This document shows positions 17,678-25,858 of a stretch of DNA of 64,000 bases, one piece after another. The notes beneath the pieces are model-generated. The model saw only the letters and a program-made list of their open reading frames with translations. It ran no database searches and was not told the DNA's origin. A program made the translations under genes and the position numbers. Origin of the DNA: Parvicellaceae bacterium (GTDB lineage: Bacteria > Bacteroidota > Bacteroidia > Flavobacteriales_D > Parvicellaceae); NCBI GenBank assembly GCA_965267315.1, contig OZ253949.1, forward strand, positions 806,781 to 870,780, read 5' to 3'. The stretch's first letter is position 1. Each line of letters begins with the position of its first letter.

Positions 17678-18085
17678 TTACTTGCTAATGAAGTTGAACT
17701 TAACCGAAGTTAGTTCCTCAAACTCTCTGCCTGCCTGTTCAATATCTTCATCCATTTCATCGTAAACCCAATCTATTTCTACATTTATTTTTTCAGACGA
17801 AGTGTTGATTTCGTTGATCTTTAAAATAAGATCCATAATGTACTTGGCTGATGAAGAATTGAAATATTCAAACCGGAATTTAACCCGGTGGTTTTCTTCT
17901 CTTTTAAACTGCTGAACCCTGTAATACAACTGGCCTCCCCAGTTCTCGATCCATTCTTTTACCGGTTTGTAGAATTCCGCAACGTTCTCCGGTCGGCTTT
18001 CTCCCTGAATTACATAGTTTCCGGTGTCAAGGTCAAGGTCAACCTGAGGGGTGTTGTCGGTTCCAGAAATTTTTAGTGGTTTCAT
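17678..18085 (-). CDS. SiaC-family (DUF1987) regulatory phosphoprotein
   Basis: 135 aa. N-terminus MKPLKISGTDNTPQVDLDLDTGNYVIQGESRPENV...W matches the DUF1987 consensus. Lies 18 bp downstream of the PP2C gene. Confidence 0.65.
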   Translation of the reverse strand: MKPLKISGTDNTPQVDLDLDTGNYVIQGESRPENVAEFYKPVKEWIENWGGQLYYRVQQFKREENHRVKFRFEYFNSSSAKYIMDLILKINEINTSSEKINVEIDWVYDEMDEDIEQAGREFEELTSVKFNFISK

Positions 18086-18103
18086 AGGTCTTTCTTCTCT
18101 CTA

Positions 18104-20020
18104 TTAAATTCGGATTCCCAGGATTAATATATCGTCTATTTGTTCGCGGTCGCCTTTCCATCTGGTGAGGGTTTTTTCCAATTCTGCGGCTTGTAAATTT
18201 GCTTTCTTCGCAGCCAGGTCTTTGAGCAACTCCCGGAATCGTTTGGGATAAAACTTTTTCCCTTCGCTTCCTCCTTTTTGGTCGTAGAAACCATCGGAAT
18301 ATAGATATATCATTTCCCCGGAATCAAGTTGAAGAGTGGTTTGGTTAAAGTCGGTGTGATTTTGGTGATAACCCAAATGCATAGCACTTCCCCGAATTTC
18401 ATCCATCTTATTGCCCGATACACGCAACATGGAATTTCTAGACCCCGCGAACCTGAGTTCCTTTTTCTCCCGGTTCACGTTTATCACAACAACATCCATT
18501 CCGTCTTTTACCGAATCATCAGATTTATCGCTCCCAAACAACTCGTACAAATCCTCATTCAGGCGCCCCAGGATCTTTTCCGGTTCCCGCAGCTTTTCCT
18601 GTTTTACAATTTTCTCTACAGTACTAATGGCCAAAACAGACATCAATGCCCCCGGAACACCATGTCCCGTACAATCTGCCAATATTATCACGCAGTCCGT
18701 TCCATTATTATGGCACCACGAAAAATCTCCCGAAACAATGTCTCTGGGTTTGTTAAAAACAAAATGCTCCTGAAATGTGTCGGCCAGCATATAATTACTG
18801 ACCAAAAGCGCATCCTGAATTTTTCTGGCATAATTAATACTGTCGGTAATGTTTTGATTCTTCTTATCCAGCTCGGCATTTTGCTCTGCAATTCTGATGT
18901 TCTTGTGCTTTAATTTTTTGTTGTTGCTCACAAATACAAAAACCAGAATTAGCACCAGCATACAAGCTACACCGGCACCAACCAACCAGGCTTGTGTTCT
19001 GGCTTGCTCCGCCTCCGACTGCCTCAGTTCTGCATCTTTACGGGCTGTTTCTAGTTCGATTCTCTCCAGTTCCTGCTGTTGCGCCGCTGCCTCTTGTTCC
19101 TTTAGCATCAACTCTTTCTGCTGGTTCAGCAACTTTAACTCCTTTACCTGGTTTTCCACACTGAGATGCTCTATTTCTTCAATAGACTTCAGGTTGGCCG
19201 AGCGCATGTCCTGGATGTAGTTTTCAGTTTCTTTGATTCGGTCTTCGTCAAACTCGGTAATAGCATTGTGTTTAGACTCATTCCCTGACTCTACCTGCTT
19301 TATGGTGCTGCGAATTGACCCGATCGAGGAAAGATTATTGGTTACAGCCAATTCTTCAGCTTGTTTTAACCGCTTCAGAGCTGTTTCGTAGTCTCCGTAA
19401 TTTGAATAAACACCTCCCAGGTTTAGAAGTAGTGTTGCCTGATCGGACGGGCTTGGGTTGCTCTCATATATCTTATTTGCTTTCTCATATTCCTCAATTG
19501 CTTTTTTTAAGCTCCCCATGGAGTAATAATTAAAAGCCATTTTTGCGATGATTTTGGCTCTCTCCACTTGTGCATAATTGTTGGAGGCAAGGGCAGAGCG
19601 GTAGGCCTCATTAGACTCCTTATATTTTTTAACATTGGCATAGCTGAACCCTATCGATTCGTAACAATACCCCGTTAAATCGTTCATTTTTTGCTTTTCC
19701 GTAATGGCTGTGGCCTTTTTAAAATAATCAACAGCATCAGCAAACTTTTTTGCCTTTTTGGTCGCGTTGCCGCCATTAACCAAACCTCGTAGCTGCTCAT
19801 TCTCGTTAGAAGAAGATTCAGCCAGCTGAATTGCCCGGTCCGCATAATCTTGAGCCTCTGCGTAATTCTTATCGGCGGTCAATTTCTCGGCAATGGTGTT
19901 GGCAATACCAGCTTTATTAGCGTCTGAAGCTTGATCTAACTGAGTCTTCAATTCGTCAATTCCTTGTGCCCAAACGGTTACACAACAAAAGGATAATATG
20001 ACCAGCACTAGTTGTTTCAT
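18104..20020 (-). CDS. Membrane PP2C/SpoIIE-type Ser/Thr phosphatase with extracytoplasmic TPR sensor domain and coiled coil (SiaA-like)
   Basis: Signal peptide, TPR repeats, long coiled coil, TM (WLVGAGVACMLVLILVFVFV). PP2C motifs DFSWCH...LADCTGHGVPGALMS...DGMDVVV...YLYSDGFYDQ. Confidence 0.8.
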   Translation of the reverse strand: MKQLVLVILSFCCVTVWAQGIDELKTQLDQASDANKAGIANTIAEKLTADKNYAEAQDYADRAIQLAESSSNENEQLRGLVNGGNATKKAKKFADAVDYFKKATAITEKQKMNDLTGYCYESIGFSYANVKKYKESNEAYRSALASNNYAQVERAKIIAKMAFNYYSMGSLKKAIEEYEKANKIYESNPSPSDQATLLLNLGGVYSNYGDYETALKRLKQAEELAVTNNLSSIGSIRSTIKQVESGNESKHNAITEFDEDRIKETENYIQDMRSANLKSIEEIEHLSVENQVKELKLLNQQKELMLKEQEAAAQQQELERIELETARKDAELRQSEAEQARTQAWLVGAGVACMLVLILVFVFVSNNKKLKHKNIRIAEQNAELDKKNQNITDSINYARKIQDALLVSNYMLADTFQEHFVFNKPRDIVSGDFSWCHNNGTDCVIILADCTGHGVPGALMSVLAISTVEKIVKQEKLREPEKILGRLNEDLYELFGSDKSDDSVKDGMDVVVINVNREKKELRFAGSRNSMLRVSGNKMDEIRGSAMHLGYHQNHTDFNQTTLQLDSGEMIYLYSDGFYDQKGGSEGKKFYPKRFRELLKDLAAKKANLQAAELEKTLTRWKGDREQIDDILILGIRI

Positions 20021-20571
20021 GCGTTAAGCCGAATGGTCACTTCCAATAAGAAGAATTTTTTAGTCGCATCTACATCCTGAAAAGTATAACCCATATTCCC
20101 TTCGCTGTTAAGGGCTATCTGAAGCATTCCCAACCCAGCACCACCTTTGTCGGAAAGCTCTCCTTCCACCAGTTGTTTTTGATAGGCTTCTTTCAGTTGC
20201 TCCTGGGTTTTATTCTTTAACGGTTTAATGCGCGACTCCAGCTCTTCGATAGCTTCGGTTCTTACCATGTTCCCACTGTGAATAATAATCGAATCACCCA
20301 CACGAGAAACGTTTACAATTCCGAAGCGGTCTCCCGATTCAACGTCTTCCGTGGTGTGGCGGGTAATGTTCTCAATACATTCAACAAAACTCGAGTACAC
20401 TTTCTTAAAAATGATTCGTTCCATCTTGTCGGAGTCCAGGTTTTCCTTTAGCGTATTAATCAGGTGGTTTGAAATCTTAAAGGAGATATTTCCGAAATAG
20501 CACATCAGAATCTCATGATCCTTAAGGTCTTCGAACAGAGAGTAGACATATTTAGGTGAAATCCGGGTCAT
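20017..20571 (-). CDS. SiaB-like small protein kinase / anti-sigma-type ATPase-like protein
   Basis: 184 aa. ATGA overlap with the PP2C gene. GGAGLGMLQIAL G-rich motif as in GHKL/anti-sigma kinases. Gene order kinase-PP2C-DUF1987 matches Sia-type modules. Confidence 0.5.
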   Translation of the reverse strand: MTRISPKYVYSLFEDLKDHEILMCYFGNISFKISNHLINTLKENLDSDKMERIIFKKVYSSFVECIENITRHTTEDVESGDRFGIVNVSRVGDSIIIHSGNMVRTEAIEELESRIKPLKNKTQEQLKEAYQKQLVEGELSDKGGAGLGMLQIALNSEGNMGYTFQDVDATKKFFLLEVTIRLNA

Positions 20572-20791: not shown

Positions 20792-21598
20792 ATGAAAAGT
20801 CTATTGGTTCCTGTCGATTTCACGGAAGTCGCAAGAGTAGCGATGGAACACGCTGCGAAGCTAGCTGAAACAATTGGTGCGGATGTGGTTCTTTTGCACG
20901 TGGTTGGCAAGGCTGAAGAAGTAGCAAAAGCCAAAGAAAAATTAGCGGAAGAAGCAAAGATCATTTCCGACTCTGCCTCATCGGTAAATGTGCGAATTGC
21001 GGTTCGGATAGGAAGTATTTTCGAAGACATCGCCCAAACAGCTGCTGAAGAAAGTGCCGAACTCATTATAATGGGTACTCACGGCGCAAAAGGTTGGCAA
21101 AAATTGGTAGGTAGTCACGCCCTGAAAGTGATTACAAGTTCAAAATCTCCTTTTATTGTCGTACAAACCAAAGGAATTAAGCCAAATGGATATGACGATA
21201 TTGTGGTGCCAATGGACTTGAACAACTATTCCATGCAGAAGCTTGAACTGGTAGCAGACATGTCCAAATACTTCGATTCCAGAGTTCACGTAATCGCAGA
21301 GCGTGTAGAAAGCGCAGCCCAAAAAGTAAAAAACAACTTAATTATTGCGCATAAATACCTTACCGAAAAAGGTGTAAAGCACGATTCTAAGGTTGCCGAA
21401 AAGGCTGGCGGATTTGACGAACAAGTAATTGAGCACGCGAAAAAAGTTGATGCGGATTTGATTGCGATTATGAACGACGGTGAAGCCATGTTCGGAGACC
21501 GACATGCTCAGGCAATGATTACTAACACAGCGGAAATTCCTGTGATGACCGTTAACGCCAGAGAAAGTGGCGGTGGTGGTACAGTGTTCTCGCGATAG
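20792..21598 (+). CDS. Universal stress protein, tandem UspA domains
   Basis: Two USP repeats (LLVPVDFTE...VVLLHVV...LIIMGTHGAKGWQKLVGSHALKV and the second half). ATP-binding G-x2-G-x9-G(S/T) pattern present. Confidence 0.85.
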   Translation: MKSLLVPVDFTEVARVAMEHAAKLAETIGADVVLLHVVGKAEEVAKAKEKLAEEAKIISDSASSVNVRIAVRIGSIFEDIAQTAAEESAELIIMGTHGAKGWQKLVGSHALKVITSSKSPFIVVQTKGIKPNGYDDIVVPMDLNNYSMQKLELVADMSKYFDSRVHVIAERVESAAQKVKNNLIIAHKYLTEKGVKHDSKVAEKAGGFDEQVIEHAKKVDADLIAIMNDGEAMFGDRHAQAMITNTAEIPVMTVNARESGGGGTVFSR

Positions 21599-21910: not shown

Positions 21911-24900
21911 TTAGTCTTTGTAATTATCTTCCTTCAACCGCTCCTTAATCTTTTCCAGGTGCATCATCTTTTTCTCCTGTCGCAGTTCAATGGCACTTTT
22001 AGTAAAGTACTTGTGCTGAGTCAGAAACTTCACCTGAATCTCATCCCAAAGACGATCTGAGTTGATTTTACCGTGTTCTCTTAACTCTCTCCGGAGCGTA
22101 TCGGCAATTTTAGGAAAGTCATCTCGCCCCAGATAATCAAGGTCGGCGTCGCAAATGATTTCCTCCAGGTGTGATTGTGGATTGTGCGGAATAATGGTTG
22201 CATAAATGAGCTTAAATACCTTCTCCACCTGCTCAGGGGTATAGCCATACTTGGGTAGTATTTCCGCTGCCATGCGCGCCCCTATCGGTTCGTTGGCATC
22301 ATATTGCTCCACGAAGCCTGCATCATGATAGGTCGCCGCAGATTTTAAAACGAAAATGTCTTCATCCAGTACGCCCTCCATAATAGCAAGTCGCTCTGCC
22401 GCTTCTACGACATCATAGGTATGATGGATACCGTGATAATAAAGCTTCGGAGATAACTTCTGCTTTAGAATACGCATAATGTGTCGCTCCGCTTTCTGAT
22501 AGTTGATCGAACTATAGACGTGTAGGTTCACGTAGTCCCAGAACCTGCGGTTTGGCGTTACTCCATCTCCATCCTCAGACAGGTGTGGTTTAATCCCGTC
22601 CACAAAATACATATCGATATGGCCTTTGTTTTTCGCAGGGATTTTTCCTCGATAAGTACAGTCAAAATAGGGCTCAATGTATTCGAACGTCTTTCCGGAT
22701 ATATTCACCTTACCAACTTCACCACTTTGTTCCATTCTGGCCGCAATGTTTACTGAATTGCCCCAGATATCATAAGCAATTCGCTTGGTGCCAATTACAC
22801 CAGCAATTACCTCTCCTGTATGAATTCCAATCCTCAGATCCCAACCTTCCGCCGGTTTTCCGGCAGCAATTGCGTGTTGCTTGGATTTCCTTACATAATT
22901 TTGGATTTGCAGGCCTGCAATAACGGTGTTAATGGGGTTCTCCTTATCTCTCAGCGGAACCCCTCCAGCCGCCATGTAAGCATCTCCAATTGTTTTGATT
23001 TTCTCAATATGGTTGGATTCTACGATTTGATCAAACTCCTTGAAATAGTTGTCGAGAATTCTAACGAGCTCCTGCGGTCTGAAGTCTTCTGCATGACTGG
23101 TAAAGCTTTTAAAGTCCGTAAACATAACCGACACTCGCCGGTAATTTCTTGTCCGTGCTTTGCCTTTATTTTTAAGCTCTTCGGCTGTTTCTTCCGGCAA
23201 GATGTTTGCCAGAAGTTTATCGGCTTTTTCCTTTTCCATCTCCACCATATCTTTCTGGCGTTCGAGATGCTGTTTTTGCTCCTGTATTTTTTCTTTTTGC
23301 TCGGTTATTGTCCGGGTTCTTAATTCCACCAGCCTGGCAAGTGTTTCCTTTTGGTTCTTAATAGATCTTATCCTGATCCTCTGAACGGCTACTACTAAGG
23401 CTATGGCCAGCACAATGAGCAACCCTCTAAACCACCAAGTTTGCCAGAACGGAGGAGTGACGGTAATTTTTAGCGTTGCCGGAACTTCAGACCATTTACC
23501 ATCAGAATTGGAGCCATACACCTTAAAGGTGTAGGTTCCCGGAGAAAGGTGGTTGTAGTATGCCTCCCGCCTGTTGCCAACTTCATTAAACTTGGTTTCA
23601 TCCCCTTCCAGAATGTATTTGTATTGGTTTGCCTCGGAATTCGTGTAGTGCAGCGCCGCAAATTTGATGGTTAAATTGGTTTGCGTGTGATCGAGAACTA
23701 TTTCTTTGGCAAAGGACGGTGCCTGATTCAAAATTTCACCTTCACCCACCGCTAACGGCTGGTTAAACAACAATACATCTGTAATTGCCATTCTTGGTCG
23801 CCTTTGGTTTTCCTGGATATTCTTTGGATAAAATGCGTTAAACCCGTTTATCCCTCCAAAGAACAATTCTCCGTTTTTAGATCGGTAGTAAGCTCCGGTA
23901 TTGAACTCATTACTCTGCAACCCATCCGACGCGAGATAAGTGGTAAATGTTTCATTTACAATTTCCAGACGGCAAACTCCCAGGTTTGTGGTCATCCAGA
24001 GCGAACCGGGTTCTCCGCCCATCACTCCGTATACCGCGTTGTTTGAAAGACCGTCTTTCTCCGTATAGGCTTTAAATTTCTTAGTAACGGGGTCAAGCCG
24101 ATTCAATCCGCCCCCATAAGTTCCAACCCAGATGGCTCCTCCTGGTTCTTCCCAAATGGACAGAACTACATCTGAACTGATCGAATTAGGGTCAGAAGGG
24201 TTGTTTCGGAAGGTTCTAAAATTAAACTCCTCCATATCTCCCGGGCGAGTTATGGTTAATTTGCACAATCCGCCCTCAGTTGCAATCCAGTAATTTCTCT
24301 TGGAATCGATGACCAACGAACGACATATGTTGGTTGGCAACGTATTTGGATCGTCGATACTGTGTTCAAAAAACTTTGATTCGCCAGTTCTGGTGTTGTA
24401 CCGCCCCAGGCCTTCCCGGCAACAAATCCATATAAACTCACGATCACGGGTTAACTCATATACCCGATGATATAGTTTACCATCCGGCCGGAAAATTACC
24501 GGCTCGTACCATGCGGATTCGAAATCGGGTGATGTTTTAAGGCGGTAAAGACCATCAATTGTTCCCACCCAAATTTGTCCTCTTTCATCAAACTCAATTG
24601 CGTTGACACTATTATTTCCGGGCGCATCAGGATTGCTTCCCTGAAACTGGTAGTTGTTTACCTTAAAATTTTCTCTGTCTATTCGGGCAACTCCTTCACG
24701 TGTACCCACCCAGATGATTCCGGCGCTATCTTTTCTGATCGTCCAGATATTTTCATCAATCAGCCCATTGTCTCCAAAATCTCCTTTTATGTGGTCGAAG
24801 GCTTGTTTAACGGGATCGAATTTGCTAACCCCCCCGTTGGTTCCAATCCAAATAGAGCCAGAGGCATCGGCAATCATGCTGAAAACAATAGGGTTGATCA

Positions 24901-25858
24901 GGCTCGTTCGGTCGAAGTCGTTGGCAGAAAAATTGGTGACATTAATTTTTCCGTTCCGAAAATTCACTTCATCCAGGCCTGCCCCTTCGTACCCACACCA
25001 CACCAGTCCGGAGGTGTCCGAAAAAACGACTTTCACGTTATCTCCAGACAGCCCGTCTTCTATTCCATAATTGGTGAAACTGCTACCATCAAACAGACTG
25101 ATACCTTTGTCTGTAGCAACCCATGTTCGGTTCTTGTGATCCTGGAAGATATCGTTAACGAAATCTCCCCCAATTGACTTCTCGTTTTGCTTGTCTGACC
25201 GGAAATTATTGAAGGTTTTGTGATTTTTCTGCAGGACATATAGTCCCTTGCCTTGTGATCCAACCAAAATGTCACCGCGCTCATTGATTCCGATCTTATT
25301 GATCGTTGAAGCTGAGATGCCATTTTCAGCATCGTATTCTGTGATTGTAGAGTCCGGCACATGAAACTTGATCAATCCTCCGTTCTCTGAACCAATCCAG
25401 AGGTTGTCATCTTTATCCATGGCCAAAGCCAAAATCTGCCCCTTTTCGATGATGTCGTGTCCCTGAAGCCGATGAAATTGTCTGGTTCTTGGGTTAAAAG
25501 AATTTACACCCCCGCTTTCAGTTCCAATCCAAAGCATCCCGTCCCTTCCCTGGATAATCGTTCGAATGAAACTATTGCTAAGAGAATTTGCGTTTTCCGG
25601 ATCGTGTTTGAAAACCTGAAAGGAATACCCATCAAATTTATTCAGCCCTTCTTGAGTGCCCAGCCAAATAAAACCCTGTGCATCCTCAAGCATGCAGTTT
25701 ACGGAACTTTGTGAAAGCCCCTCCTCAATAGAGTAGTTGTCGAAACGAATGCTGCGCATTTGCGCCATAGAGGCGCCAGCGATTAGTAACAATAAAGAAG
25801 ATATCAGGCGTTTCATGCGATCCTCGTCGAAAAGAAAAAGCCTCGATGCTAAAATCAA
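21911..25858 (-). CDS. Sensor adenylate cyclase: periplasmic two-component-regulator propeller + Y_Y_Y domain, TM, coiled coil, class III nucleotidyl cyclase, C-terminal HD-domain phosphohydrolase
   Basis: Signal peptide. Repeated Reg_prop-like beta-propeller blades (W.GT..GL). Y_Y_Y segment then TM (WFRGLLIVLAIALVVAV). Cyclase motifs MFTDFKSFT (metal Asp), KTIGDAYMAAGG (Lys plus Asp), YDIWGNSVNIAARME (adenine-specifying Asp, Asn, Arg). HD motifs HGIHHT...ATYHDAGF...DADLDYLGRDD. Confidence 0.85.
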   Translation of the reverse strand: MILASRLFLFDEDRMKRLISSLLLLIAGASMAQMRSIRFDNYSIEEGLSQSSVNCMLEDAQGFIWLGTQEGLNKFDGYSFQVFKHDPENANSLSNSFIRTIIQGRDGMLWIGTESGGVNSFNPRTRQFHRLQGHDIIEKGQILALAMDKDDNLWIGSENGGLIKFHVPDSTITEYDAENGISASTINKIGINERGDILVGSQGKGLYVLQKNHKTFNNFRSDKQNEKSIGGDFVNDIFQDHKNRTWVATDKGISLFDGSSFTNYGIEDGLSGDNVKVVFSDTSGLVWCGYEGAGLDEVNFRNGKINVTNFSANDFDRTSLINPIVFSMIADASGSIWIGTNGGVSKFDPVKQAFDHIKGDFGDNGLIDENIWTIRKDSAGIIWVGTREGVARIDRENFKVNNYQFQGSNPDAPGNNSVNAIEFDERGQIWVGTIDGLYRLKTSPDFESAWYEPVIFRPDGKLYHRVYELTRDREFIWICCREGLGRYNTRTGESKFFEHSIDDPNTLPTNICRSLVIDSKRNYWIATEGGLCKLTITRPGDMEEFNFRTFRNNPSDPNSISSDVVLSIWEEPGGAIWVGTYGGGLNRLDPVTKKFKAYTEKDGLSNNAVYGVMGGEPGSLWMTTNLGVCRLEIVNETFTTYLASDGLQSNEFNTGAYYRSKNGELFFGGINGFNAFYPKNIQENQRRPRMAITDVLLFNQPLAVGEGEILNQAPSFAKEIVLDHTQTNLTIKFAALHYTNSEANQYKYILEGDETKFNEVGNRREAYYNHLSPGTYTFKVYGSNSDGKWSEVPATLKITVTPPFWQTWWFRGLLIVLAIALVVAVQRIRIRSIKNQKETLARLVELRTRTITEQKEKIQEQKQHLERQKDMVEMEKEKADKLLANILPEETAEELKNKGKARTRNYRRVSVMFTDFKSFTSHAEDFRPQELVRILDNYFKEFDQIVESNHIEKIKTIGDAYMAAGGVPLRDKENPINTVIAGLQIQNYVRKSKQHAIAAGKPAEGWDLRIGIHTGEVIAGVIGTKRIAYDIWGNSVNIAARMEQSGEVGKVNISGKTFEYIEPYFDCTYRGKIPAKNKGHIDMYFVDGIKPHLSEDGDGVTPNRRFWDYVNLHVYSSINYQKAERHIMRILKQKLSPKLYYHGIHHTYDVVEAAERLAIMEGVLDEDIFVLKSAATYHDAGFVEQYDANEPIGARMAAEILPKYGYTPEQVEKVFKLIYATIIPHNPQSHLEEIICDADLDYLGRDDFPKIADTLRRELREHGKINSDRLWDEIQVKFLTQHKYFTKSAIELRQEKKMMHLEKIKERLKEDNYKD

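Follow-up and report, generated by a model that had tools for sequence, protein, structure and literature searches.

A Bacteroidota membrane protein predicted to join a periplasmic glycan-type sensor, an intact class III cyclase and a compact phosphodiesterase-like domain

The hybrid two-component (HTCS) sensors of Bacteroides (BT4663, PDB 4a2l; 3v9f/3ott) are built of two Reg_prop beta-propellers and a Y_Y_Y domain, followed by one transmembrane (TM) helix. Signaling by the propeller probably involves a dimer that binds its ligand in the periplasm, and their output is a histidine kinase/receiver/AraC module. The adenylate cyclases (AC) Rv1625c/Cya of mycobacteria and AC5, AC8 and AC9 of mammals have a helical transducer before the catalytic domain and are held in the membrane by 6-TM or 12-TM anchors, without a large ectodomain and without a hydrolase behind the cyclase. 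Class I cyclic-nucleotide phosphodiesterases (PDEs; PDE4D, PDE7A, PDE9A and RhoPDE) have a domain of about 330 aa. YpgQ, an HD hydrolase, is a Mn-dependent (d)NTP pyrophosphohydrolase (PMC8177086), while its plant relative ATCN-PDE1 brings down the pool of cGMP, and BDPDE1, another one, has been assayed with both cAMP and cGMP (PMC8431786). No fusion to cyclases has been reported for YpgQ/YedJ/2pq7-type proteins or for these plant enzymes.

The protein described here is encoded in a 64-kb window (the whole stretch of DNA that was analyzed). Its ectodomain is identical in kind to that of the HTCS sensors, but its output is a class III cyclase followed by an HD domain (Table 1). The maximal open reading frame (21911-25858, minus strand, stop codon at 21911-21913) has 1315 codons counted from a TTG at 25858. 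However, a database protein (P0001) that is 100% identical over 1301 aa begins 14 codons downstream, at an ATG at nt 25816 (MKRLISS...). The gene therefore most likely spans 21911-25816 and encodes 1301 aa; we took this ATG as the true start and rejected the TTG. Judged from its sequence, the product is a Bacteroidota membrane protein in which a periplasmic glycan-type sensor is joined to an intact class III cyclase and a compact PDE-resembling domain. Pfam found every domain named in a first-pass annotation of this DNA (Reg_prop, Y_Y_Y, Guanylate_cyc and HD). That annotation had also called the pairing unusual for Bacteroidota. It is not unique, however: about 39 full-length proteins in the database show the full architecture, as do most of 80 species-level genomes. 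The domain combination is thus not a chance assembly, and the pairing of sensor, cyclase and HD domain represents a conserved family across Flavobacteriales.

Table 1. Features of the receptor cyclase gene and its convergent neighbor
Feature	Position (nt)	Strand	Basis
Whole gene, receptor-type adenylate cyclase with C-terminal PDE-like HD domain	21911..25816	-	ORF, database protein P0001, Pfam
Putative signal peptide (MKRLISSLLLLIAGASMAQ), ORF aa 15-33	25760..25816	-	Read from sequence
HTCS-type periplasmic sensor, two Reg_prop beta-propellers and Y_Y_Y	23444..25759	-	Pfam, phmmer
Single transmembrane helix (WWFRGLLIVLAIALVVAV), aa 806-827	23378..23443	-	Kyte-Doolittle
Coiled coil with transducer segment of the cyclase, cytoplasmic, aa 828-903, last residues ...LLANILPEETAEELKNKG	23150..23377	-	Pfam, AC9 alignment
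Catalytic domain of the class IIIa adenylate cyclase, aa 904-1087	22598..23149	-	Pfam, AC9 and Rv1625c/Cya alignments
Linker between cyclase and HD domain, aa 1088-1118, conserved P-N..F	22505..22597	-	Conservation among representatives
Compact HD domain (aa 1119-1310) similar to the core of class I cNMP phosphodiesterases	21929..22504	-	Pfam, AlphaFold, conservation, PDE4D2 residue map
Tandem universal-stress-protein (USP) gene, convergent	20792..21598	+	Pfam Usp x2

In the putative signal peptide, read by eye, a basic N terminus is followed by a hydrophobic core and by a cleavage motif of small residues. Pfam detected the Reg_prop repeats with 118 bits and the Y_Y_Y domain (aa 738-800, nt 23459-23647) with 52 bits, and a phmmer search of the PDB matched the ectodomain to 4a2l (E 6e-101), 3v9f (6e-70) and 3ott (6e-46). 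The TM helix was the sole Kyte-Doolittle 19-mer peak above 1.6, with a maximum of 2.24. Because this one strong TM segment is followed by the positively charged stretch RIRIRSIKNQK, we placed the C-terminal part in the cytoplasm. The transducer segment gave a weak match to the C-terminal part of Pfam HNOBA (aa 853-895, E 0.009), repeated in 4 relatives, and paired with the helix preceding C2 in an alignment with AC9. Pfam, the 4a2l match and hydropathy agree with the Reg_prop blades, Y_Y_Y domain and single TM helix first proposed, except that the sensor would face the periplasm and not the cell surface. Among database relatives, the same sensor was found on HK, PP2C, GGDEF and NtrC outputs.

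The Guanylate_cyc domain was recognized by Pfam with an E value of 1e-47. Its closest solved catalytic domains were those of mammalian AC9/8/5 and mycobacterial Rv1625c/Cya (PDB 4p2f, 7yz9; E 1e-39 to 1e-53), with which it shares the metal, substrate and transition-state residues. In a HMMER alignment with AC9, D915 (FTDF) and D959 (IGDAY) fell on the two C1 metal aspartates, K955 and D1030 (YDIWG) on the C2 substrate Lys/Asp, and N1037 and R1041 on the transition-state Asn/Arg. All six, as well as the phosphate lysine K1076, were invariant in 35/35 full-length homologues (37-84% identity). The residue assignments made at first pass were thus borne out, including the metal position of the FTDF aspartate, and no catalytic residue was lost. 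This indicates an intact class IIIa adenylate rather than guanylate cyclase with an adenine-specifying Lys/Asp pair (K955/D1030), catalytically competent at the sequence level. Guanylate cyclases carry Glu/Cys-type residues at the substrate-specifying positions. It is therefore very improbable that the cyclase makes another nucleotide (cGMP or a pyrimidine cNMP) that the HD domain then degrades, even if a PDE-like glutamine could accept guanine and some bacterial class III cyclases, such as XC_0250, do make cGMP (PMC3770947).

The linker behind the cyclase occurs only in fused forms, and its residues P1102, N1103 and F1106 (ORF numbering) were at least 90% conserved in the 84 representatives possessing it. 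The HD domain itself (PF01966, aa 1144-1239; cutoff 22 bits) scored 30 bits. As the first-pass annotation had read from the H...HH...HD...D..D pattern, the metal-ligand His and Asp residues were all kept, and H1142, H1146, H1178-D1179 and D1237/D1239 were invariant. Conservation extended to Y1141, D1149, E1190, T1221, D1241, E1258, W1271, Q1275, F1278 and H1282. In 150 representatives of the HD family, pairwise <50% identical, the motifs Y-H-x3-H-x2-D-V, HD, T, D-A-D, E and W-x3-Q-x2-F-x3-H were 93-100% conserved, with 100% reached by the four canonical metal ligands and by the putative general-acid His together with its partner Glu. This argues against a non-catalytic regulatory module that, on binding of cAMP or some other nucleotide, would exert allosteric feedback on the cyclase, as do the ~42 representatives that are stand-alone proteins (~197 aa) with nothing to regulate in cis. 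We give this explanation very little credence, although degenerate enzymatic domains often serve as sensors in GGDEF-EAL proteins and the domain lacks the second-shell His (H204) that class I PDEs have.

The AlphaFold model of the HD domain (pLDDT 96.3) resembled PDE2/4/5/9 in Foldseek with TM scores of 0.55-0.68. The family motifs were placed by hhalign on PDE4D2 residues Y159, H160, H164, D167, V168, H200, D201, T271, D318, E339, Q369, F372 and H378, in a greedy alignment that was non-significant by hhalign statistics (probability 3.75%, E 0.011). In a shuffle control, its score was above 200/200 shuffles and its motif-identity count was reached by 2/200. Fold and residue map together suggest a PDE-like core for this HD domain. 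It differs from class I PDEs in that it is bacterial, has only about 200 aa and lacks the helices inserted between the HD motif and the last metal Asp. Moreover, PF00233 (class I PDE) was not detected even at E<=10, and the PROSITE-type HDxxHxG signature, with its second His, is absent because the sequence there is HDAGF; no residue is equivalent to PDE4D H204.

With 6,230 clusters, the uncharacterised family to which the HD module belongs is large. In the related loci, the HD domain came directly after a cyclase domain in 79/79 cases with a long enough flank; the 80th locus is truncated at the HD domain and was left out of this count. Among 45 other mid-size multidomain representatives, 39 carried a class III Guanylate_cyc domain and 3 a cNMP_binding domain. 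The Guanylate_cyc-HD proteins had varied inputs (REC, TPR, PAS, 7TMR-DISM) and both domain orders. For stand-alone HD genes, a class III cyclase gene was immediately adjacent in 4/8 loci and missing at the other 4. The HD domain thus recurs beside cAMP-making enzymes in many other bacteria and may be their missing cAMP-degrading enzyme.

These associations bear on a different explanation, which keeps the genuine, ligand-gated adenylate cyclase but takes the HD domain for a phosphohydrolase of the YpgQ type. Instead of degrading cAMP, the domain would then act on (d)NTPs (among them the ATP that the cyclase uses), on 2',3'-cNMPs or on an alarmone, and so tune either the supply of substrate or a nucleotide signal running in parallel. 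The failed class I PDE signatures favor it, as does 2pq7, the only significant PDB sequence-profile match (E 1e-3), together with the NTP/dNTP pyrophosphohydrolase activity of YpgQ. However, fusion or adjacency to cyclase and cNMP-binding domains is far commoner than for a generic nucleotide housekeeping enzyme, and the purine-recognition Gln/Phe of PDEs have their aligned counterparts in the conserved W..Q..F..H helix at the C terminus. While the fold is equally near PDEs, 2pq7 and YpgQ, PDE structures align over about 200 residues compared to 166-172 for the latter two. Sequence similarity to the YpgQ/YedJ/2pq7 type and AtCN-PDE1/BdPDE1 is marginal (E 1e-3 to 0.25), and the HxxxHxxRV motif of YpgQ-type proteins has an Arg where the present family has Asp. 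Since ATCN-PDE1 and BDPDE1 are reported to act on cGMP/cAMP (PMC8431786), YpgQ-likeness would in any case be compatible with PDE activity. Overall, we regard a YpgQ-type function as unlikely.

We then considered the neighboring genes. As first noted, the tandem USP gene converges on the 3' end of the cyclase gene; the gap is 312 nt, and a USP gene was directly downstream and convergent in 25/80 related loci (median gap 146 nt), including loci sharing no other neighbor. It is thus a conserved neighbor and a candidate nucleotide-binding partner. The accompanying hint at cAMP binding found no backing: the USP most similar to the first domain is MJ0577, which binds ATP, and nothing specific for cAMP was seen. 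A search for a CRP-type or other cNMP receptor, suggested at first pass for the genome, found none in the 64-kb window.

A short way downstream (17678-20571), the same strand carries genes for a SiaA-like TPR-TM-PP2C protein, a SiaB-like kinase (NCBIfam NF038262, 138 bits, cutoff 85) and SiaC (PF09345, E 2e-29), with no accompanying GGDEF gene. The same order was found in the closest relative (L001). The cyclase could thus be the output of this partner switch, replacing the Pseudomonas diguanylate cyclase SiaD, with unphosphorylated SiaC binding and activating or inhibiting it; class III cyclases and GGDEF domains have a common fold (PMC1183210). We find this improbable, if compatible with ligand-gated cAMP turnover. 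The adjacency is not conserved (SiaB and SiaC near the cyclase in only 1/80 related loci), the opposite-strand USP gene stands between, and equivalog scores were far under cutoff (SiaA 201 vs 700, SiaC 75 vs 150).

The best reading, which we hold to be somewhat more probable than its negation, is a ligand-gated bifunctional cAMP synthase/phosphodiesterase. The intact class IIIa domain with its adenine pair supports the earlier proposal that a generator of cAMP, gated by a ligand, shares one polypeptide with a possible hydrolase. The product would be a single-pass receptor enzyme, presumably homodimeric, whose double-propeller/Y_Y_Y ectodomain would bind a periplasmic ligand, probably an oligosaccharide by analogy with Bacteroides hybrid two-component sensors. 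A conformational change would then be relayed through the TM helix and coiled-coil transducer and reach the cyclase dimer, which is predicted to convert ATP to 3',5'-cAMP. The HD domain, as a putative compact homologue of the class I PDE core, may hydrolyse cAMP to 5'-AMP in cis. Such a make-and-break enzyme might produce short, spatially confined cAMP pulses, or else the ligand might shift the balance between net cAMP synthesis and net degradation.

If so, the protein would be to cAMP what GGDEF-EAL proteins are to c-di-GMP, and a counterpart of CAPE, an AC/PDE fusion found in plants. GGDEF-EAL and GGDEF-HD-GYP proteins are bifunctional c-di-GMP enzymes that unite cyclase and phosphodiesterase, following the same logic of a sensor-controlled cyclase and its cognate phosphodiesterase in one chain. 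CAPE (COMBINED AC with PDE), which occurs in streptophytes such as Marchantia polymorpha and has been shown to possess both activities in vitro (PMC5159850, PMC8115329), likewise combines a class III adenylate cyclase with a cyclic-nucleotide phosphodiesterase in one polypeptide, activities that are predicted here. However, CAPE is eukaryotic, has the reversed domain order with the PDE at the N terminus, and contains a PDE of the canonical class I type, whereas the present protein fails the Pfam class I PDE model. Finally, CAPE is devoid of an extracytoplasmic sensor, unlike the protein described here.

The minus-strand open reading frame proposed in the first-pass annotation turned out to be real. 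Counted from the TTG, it comprises 1315 codons (21911..25858), and from its 15th codon on it is identical to a 1301-aa database protein (NCBI/ENA). Because this database protein begins at the ATG at 25816 (MKRLISS...), we took 21911-25816 as the gene and numbered residues from the TTG. Pfam and hydropathy analysis recovered the domain series described before, namely a propeller, Y_Y_Y, one transmembrane (TM) helix, a cyclase and an HD domain.

Features of the cyclase-HD gene, its product and its surroundings (nt, window positions; aa, residues of the 1315-codon frame)
Feature	Position	Strand	Match or remark
SiaC-family phosphoprotein	17678-18085 nt	-	
SiaA-like TPR-TM-PP2C phosphatase	18104-20020 nt	-	
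SiaB-family kinase	20017-20571 nt	-	
Tandem universal stress protein (USP)	20792-21598 nt	+	
Cyclase-HD gene	21911-25816 nt	-	
Reg_prop repeats			Pfam, 118 bits
Y_Y_Y	738-800 aa		Pfam
TM segment	806-827 aa		hydropathy
HNOBA-C, weak match	853-895 aa		Pfam; helical transducer preceding many class III cyclases
Guanylate_cyc (PF00211)	904-1087 aa		Pfam, E 1e-47, 162.5 bits vs cutoff 21.9
HD (PF01966)	1144-1239 aa		Pfam, 30-34 bits vs cutoff 22
Opposite-strand block	25975-31187 nt	+	between cyclase and ancestral upstream neighbours
Three-gene module	33511-37934 nt	-	displaced by ~7.6 kb
HWE kinase and LytTR regulator	54023-57784 nt	-	
MORN-repeat protein	57784-59355 nt		

The ectodomain matched the solved periplasmic domain of the Bacteroides hybrid two-component system (HTCS) BT4663 (4a2l) with an E value of 6e-101, and 3v9f and 3ott were matched too. 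Given the order of the domains and the single strong TM segment with RIRIRSIKNQK behind it, the protein is predicted to consist of a signal peptide, a periplasmic sensor and a TM helix, followed by a cytoplasmic coiled coil, the cyclase and the HD domain. It thus has the input half of an HTCS, that is, a periplasmic Reg_prop double propeller and Y_Y_Y followed by a TM helix. However, unlike an HTCS, it gave no Pfam match to HisKA, HATPase_c, Response_reg or HTH_18 and lacks the histidine kinase, receiver and AraC output. Since its cytoplasmic part is made of cyclase and HD domain, it is not an HTCS. Among database relatives, the same sensor sits on histidine kinase, PP2C, GGDEF and NtrC outputs, indicating that the propeller is a general input module.

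The nearest solved catalytic domains of the cyclase are those of mammalian AC9, AC8 and AC5 (E values of 1e-51 to 1e-53) and of mycobacterial Rv1625c/Cya (E value of 1e-39), which places it in class IIIa. In the alignment with AC9, D915 (FTDF) and D959 (IGDAY) coincide with the two C1 metal aspartates. The FTDF aspartate, whose possible misassignment had been named as a weak point, therefore does lie at the metal position. Furthermore, K955 and D1030 (YDIWG) align with the adenine-specifying Lys/Asp of AC9 C2, N1037 and R1041 with its transition-state Asn/Arg, and K1076 with the phosphate-binding Lys of AC9. The assignments first made are thereby confirmed, and none of these residues varies among 35 aligned full-length homologues (37-84% identity). 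The adenine-specifying pair speaks for an adenylate rather than a guanylate cyclase. Because the catalytic residues are aligned and invariant, these data support an active, homodimeric and ATP-specific enzyme, and we predict with high confidence that the domain is an active adenylate cyclase.

We then turned to the HD domain, which had been left to be sorted as PDE-like, HD-GYP or YfbR-like. The domain is genuine: PF01966 scored above its cutoff, and the metal ligands of the H...HD...D motif (H1146, H1178-D1179 and D1239) are present and 100% conserved in 150 representatives of the HD family, each taken from a separate 50%-identity cluster and aligned to the family profile. Indeed, H1142, H1146, H1178, D1179, G1181, E1190, D1237, D1239, G1244 and E1258 are 100% conserved in this set, and Y1141, E1161, W1271, Q1275, F1278, H1282, T1286, R1293 and K1297 are conserved in at least 93%. 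Conservation in the family far exceeds the minimal H..HD..D motif.

Searched against the PDB by plain sequence, the HD domain gave only spurious designed-repeat matches. The family profile weakly matched 2pq7 (E value of 1e-3) and 3dto, both uncharacterised HD hydrolases, and reached class I PDEs only marginally (PDEB1 and PDE9A, E values of 0.14-0.67). In a fold comparison, 2pq7 scored highest (16.6 over 166 aligned residues), followed by PDE7A (16.1, 197 residues), RhoPDE (16.1, 200 residues) and YpgQ (15.9, 172 residues), and then by PDE8A, 2A, 9A, 4D, 5A, 4B, PDEB1, 3A, 1B and TcrPDEC1 (14.7-15.7, 186-204 residues). Lower scores were obtained for YedJ (13.3), Ppx/GppA (about 11), small alarmone hydrolases (about 10), HD-GYP (8.2-9.4) and PgpH (7.9). 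With Foldseek, YpgQ and 2pq7 were found at an E value of 6e-4 and PDE5, 4, 2 and 9 with TM scores of 0.55-0.68. The domain thus has the fold of the class I PDE catalytic core. Since PDEs, YpgQ and 2pq7 lead in both comparisons and HD-GYP scores low, the modeled fold places the domain in the HD-superfamily branch common to class I cNMP phosphodiesterases and YpgQ-type hydrolases. An HD-GYP identity, which calls for an extended H...HD...H...H...D motif, a GYP loop and a close fold match, was rejected. The main rival to a cAMP hydrolase is that the domain could be a YpgQ-like hydrolase of another nucleotide; YpgQ and 2pq7 rank with the PDEs in fold.

When the 150-member HD profile was aligned locally with the PDE4D2 catalytic domain by hhalign, a single collinear alignment of 211 columns resulted; the PDE4D2 sequence used matches database PDE4D at 100% identity. 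The PDE side of this comparison is PDE4D alone, the homologues returned being PDE4D orthologues of at least 93% identity. A 23-sequence profile aligned only the YHxxxHxxDV motif, and global mode gave no sensible alignment. In the 211-column register, Y1141 and H1142 correspond to PDE4D2 Y159 and H160, H1146 to H164, D1149 and V1150 to D167 and V168, H1178 and D1179 to H200 and D201, T1221 to T271, D1239 to D318, E1258 to E339, Q1275 and F1278 to Q369 and F372, and H1282 to H378. In PDE4D2, H160 is the general acid with E339 as its partner, H164 is a Zn ligand, H200, D201 and D318 are metal ligands, Q369 is the invariant purine-recognising Gln and F372 the Phe clamp. The Gln switch of PDEs has been described (PMC8177086).

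By hhalign's own statistics this register is weak (probability 3.75%, E value of 0.011). Its score of 23.95 exceeded those of all 200 shuffled PDE4D sequences (mean 14.1, sd 2.3, maximum 21.1), but 2 of the 200 shuffles equalled the 13 identities at 23 conserved positions. Pfam PDEase_I (PF00233) did not match the HD domain even at E≤10. Tested against the PROSITE class I PDE signature HD[LIVMFY]xHx[AG]xxNx[LIVMFY], the domain lacks the second His of HDxxH (PDE4D2 H204), reading H1178-D1179-A-G-F with an invariant G. Hence, although the fold is alike, the low hhalign probability, the missing PF00233 match, the missing His and the tied shuffles lead us not to file the domain as a member of the class I PDE family; it probably works like the class I PDE core and is distantly homologous to it. 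The Synechocystis cGMP PDE Slr2100 was also weighed as a precedent and set aside, its source stating no domain family.

HMMER was run exhaustively on 1.84 billion representatives; the HD family has 6,230 members (clusters at 50% identity) when cut at E≤1e-3, and 1,388 when cut at E≤1e-30. By length, the top 150 comprise 62 proteins of more than 1000 aa, 46 of mid-size and 42 stand-alone copies of ~197 aa. Among 45 representatives scanned that were mid-size or otherwise multidomain, 39 have Guanylate_cyc and 3 have cNMP_binding, for instance as HD-cNMP_binding-PP2C in representatives P0165 and P0201. Inputs in the 45 were highly varied (Y_Y_Y 10, Response_reg 5, TPR 4, PAS 2, 7TMR-DISM 2), and both domain orders exist, P0196 being HD-PAS-PAS-cyclase and P0262 cyclase-AAA-TPR-HD.

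Stand-alone copies, named only "HD domain-containing protein," gave 2,764 matches at E≤1e-20. Class III cyclase genes lie directly beside the stand-alone HD gene in 4 of 8 loci inspected, the contexts of the other four being unrelated. In Taibaiella koreensis (locus L081, 1-5585; QVNU01000005.1), three consecutive cyclase genes (7TMR-DISM-cyclase, cyclase and TPR-cyclase, in this order) precede, with a gap of 34 nt, a stand-alone HD gene of 194 aa; the cyclase-HD fusion is here split into separate genes. Two loci have a same-strand cyclase gene 60 and 135 nt upstream, and one has two divergent TPR-cyclase genes. Just downstream, the T. koreensis locus also encodes a histidine kinase of the Reg_prop/Y_Y_Y type together with a LytTR regulator.

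The repeated fusion in different orders, the operon-like adjacency and the fusions to cNMP-binding domains are strong arguments that the product of the cyclase is what the HD module acts on. This speaks for a cAMP hydrolase over a YpgQ-like hydrolase of another nucleotide. Plant proteins offer two precedents: the YpgQ-like HD proteins AtCN-PDE1 and BdPDE1 have been reported to act on cGMP/cAMP (PMC8431786), and CAPE (COMBINED AC with PDE) joins an adenylate cyclase to a class I PDE in one polypeptide, both activities having been demonstrated (PMC5159850). In P0165 (648 aa) and P0201 (817 aa), an N-terminal HD module is followed by cNMP_binding and then by a PP2C (SpoIIE) phosphatase, whose region is interrupted in P0201 by a DUF559 endonuclease-like domain. 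These two proteins hint at a possible role of PP2C partner-switch phosphatases as cAMP effectors in their lineages.

The full architecture is common to about 39 database proteins (38-84% identity), and shorter relatives lack the HD domain. These proteins are already in databases under generic names, such as the automatic JGI name [quoted passage not shown]. In the open-access literature we found no description of a bacterial cyclase-HD or propeller-cyclase protein, nor of a function for the HD family. In a scan with one genome per species, relatives of the HD domain were encoded by at least 592 genomes, and the best 80 loci were compared. All 80 come from Flavobacteriales-type MAGs (for example Crocinitomicaceae, Fluviicola, Lishizhenia and Vicingaceae). 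The window is a Bacteroidota sequence that encodes T9SS sorting domains and SprB repeats; by its relatives it belongs in Flavobacteriales, close to a marine MAG from an uncultured organism (L001). In every one of these loci that reaches far enough, a cyclase domain lies ~618 nt upstream of the HD domain. The propeller is kept in most and replaced by something else in about 14 (L041-L043, L047-L049, L053, L058, L060, L065, L067, L069, L070 and L074), where the cyclase-HD pair shows no detectable similarity to the window propeller and presumably carries a different N-terminal sensor. Ten of these propeller-less loci have a same-strand USP gene ~7 kb downstream and a GH3-like gene ~5.3 kb downstream.

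To count neighbors, the flanking ORFs of the 80 loci were clustered without bias. The tandem USP gene is the direct downstream neighbor in convergent orientation in 25 loci (median gap 146 nt) and on the same strand in 2 more; 12 others have a USP gene ~7 kb away. Because the adjacency is kept in loci with no other neighbor in common (the window, L004, L052, L061, L072 and L077), it represents more than block synteny. The first USP domain is closest to the ATP-binding MJ0577 and has the G-x2-G-x8-G-S motif; the second is degenerate. USPs can bind cAMP, as described for Rv1636 (PMC11107214), but the features seen here do not tell cAMP from ATP. No terminator or promoter consensus was found between cyclase and USP genes with a tool that does not model Bacteroidota promoters, and neither jackhmmer (three seeds) nor Pfam scans of 40 window genes detected a cNMP-binding or CRP-like gene in the window. 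A ferritin gene was commoner than USP, lying directly upstream on the same strand, ~50-100 nt away, in 39 of the 80 loci (L006, L015-L020 and about 32 others; Pfam Ferritin E value of 1e-37 in L007). It is absent from the window, and iron, or the metal supply of the HD domain, may be the connection.

In the 11 closest loci (L001, L002, L003, L005, L007, L008, L010, L011, L013, L037 and L076), the cyclase-HD gene is directly preceded by three genes of the same orientation, which suggests that a HAMP-PP2C system is linked to the cyclase. The products of this three-gene module are a protein of 182 aa, whose L007 counterpart is a YfiR/HmsC-like DUF4154 protein, a weakly TPR-like one of 369 aa and a HAMP-SpoIIE/PP2C phosphatase. 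Module and cyclase are kept apart in the window by Band_7 and p184 genes and by the opposite-strand block, which, compared with L001 and L002, looks inserted. The block encodes a UbiA prenyltransferase, a 703-aa fused FAD-oxidase/short-chain-dehydrogenase (DprE1/DprE2-like), a HAD phosphatase and a PMT_2/ArnT-like glycosyltransferase, resembling a decaprenyl-phospho-arabinose-type sugar-donor pathway.

On the other side of the USP gene, the SiaB/SiaA/SiaC-like genes (17678-20571) are predicted to form a partner-switch cluster. The SiaB-family model scored 138 bits vs 85 and Pfam SiaC 102 bits vs 24.5, whereas the equivalog models stayed under cutoff (SiaA 201 vs 700, SiaB 74 vs 225, SiaC 75 vs 150). 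Unlike Pseudomonas SiaABCD, the cluster comes without a GGDEF SiaD: no GGDEF gene lies within 8000-31000, and the class III cyclase itself is the nearest protein with a cyclase fold. A general partnership between SiaABC and the cyclase was rejected, since SiaB and SiaC occur with it in only 1 of the 80 loci, and the gene order recurs only in the closest relative, L001. Elsewhere in the window, a 998-aa multi-PAS HWE/HisKA_2 histidine kinase lies beside a LytTR response regulator, with a MORN-repeat protein upstream, forming a signaling unit unrelated to the cyclase-HD protein.

Overall, the earlier idea of a ligand-gated cAMP generator with a possible hydrolase gains support and becomes sharper. 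A periplasmic ligand would gate the class IIIa adenylate cyclase, and the HD domain would serve as a built-in, compact PDE-like cAMP hydrolase; we lean slightly towards this joint reading, in which the protein carries its own cNMP phosphodiesterase. The cAMP phosphodiesterases known from bacteria are metallophosphoesterases (CpdA/Rv0805) or members of class II, and class I PDEs are regarded as essentially eukaryotic. More tentatively, with chances that we put a little short of even, the HD family could be a large unrecognised group of bacterial compact class-I-like 3',5'-cNMP phosphodiesterases, which would be the cAMP-degrading enzyme missing from Bacteroidota and other phyla, a prokaryotic relative of the eukaryotic PDE core, and what makes the cyclase-HD protein a bifunctional switch. 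If a widespread PDE-like HD family is indeed tied to cyclases, it would represent a third route of bacterial cAMP turnover, offer a handle on cAMP signaling in Bacteroidota, of whose effectors and physiology little has been described, and have implications for how the eukaryotic PDE core arose. As an example of an HTCS-type glycan sensor driving a non-kinase output, the protein makes a clean test case. The known kinds to which it relates are receptor cyclases, AC/PDE fusions and HD hydrolases, and it would be the cAMP equivalent of the GGDEF-EAL logic.
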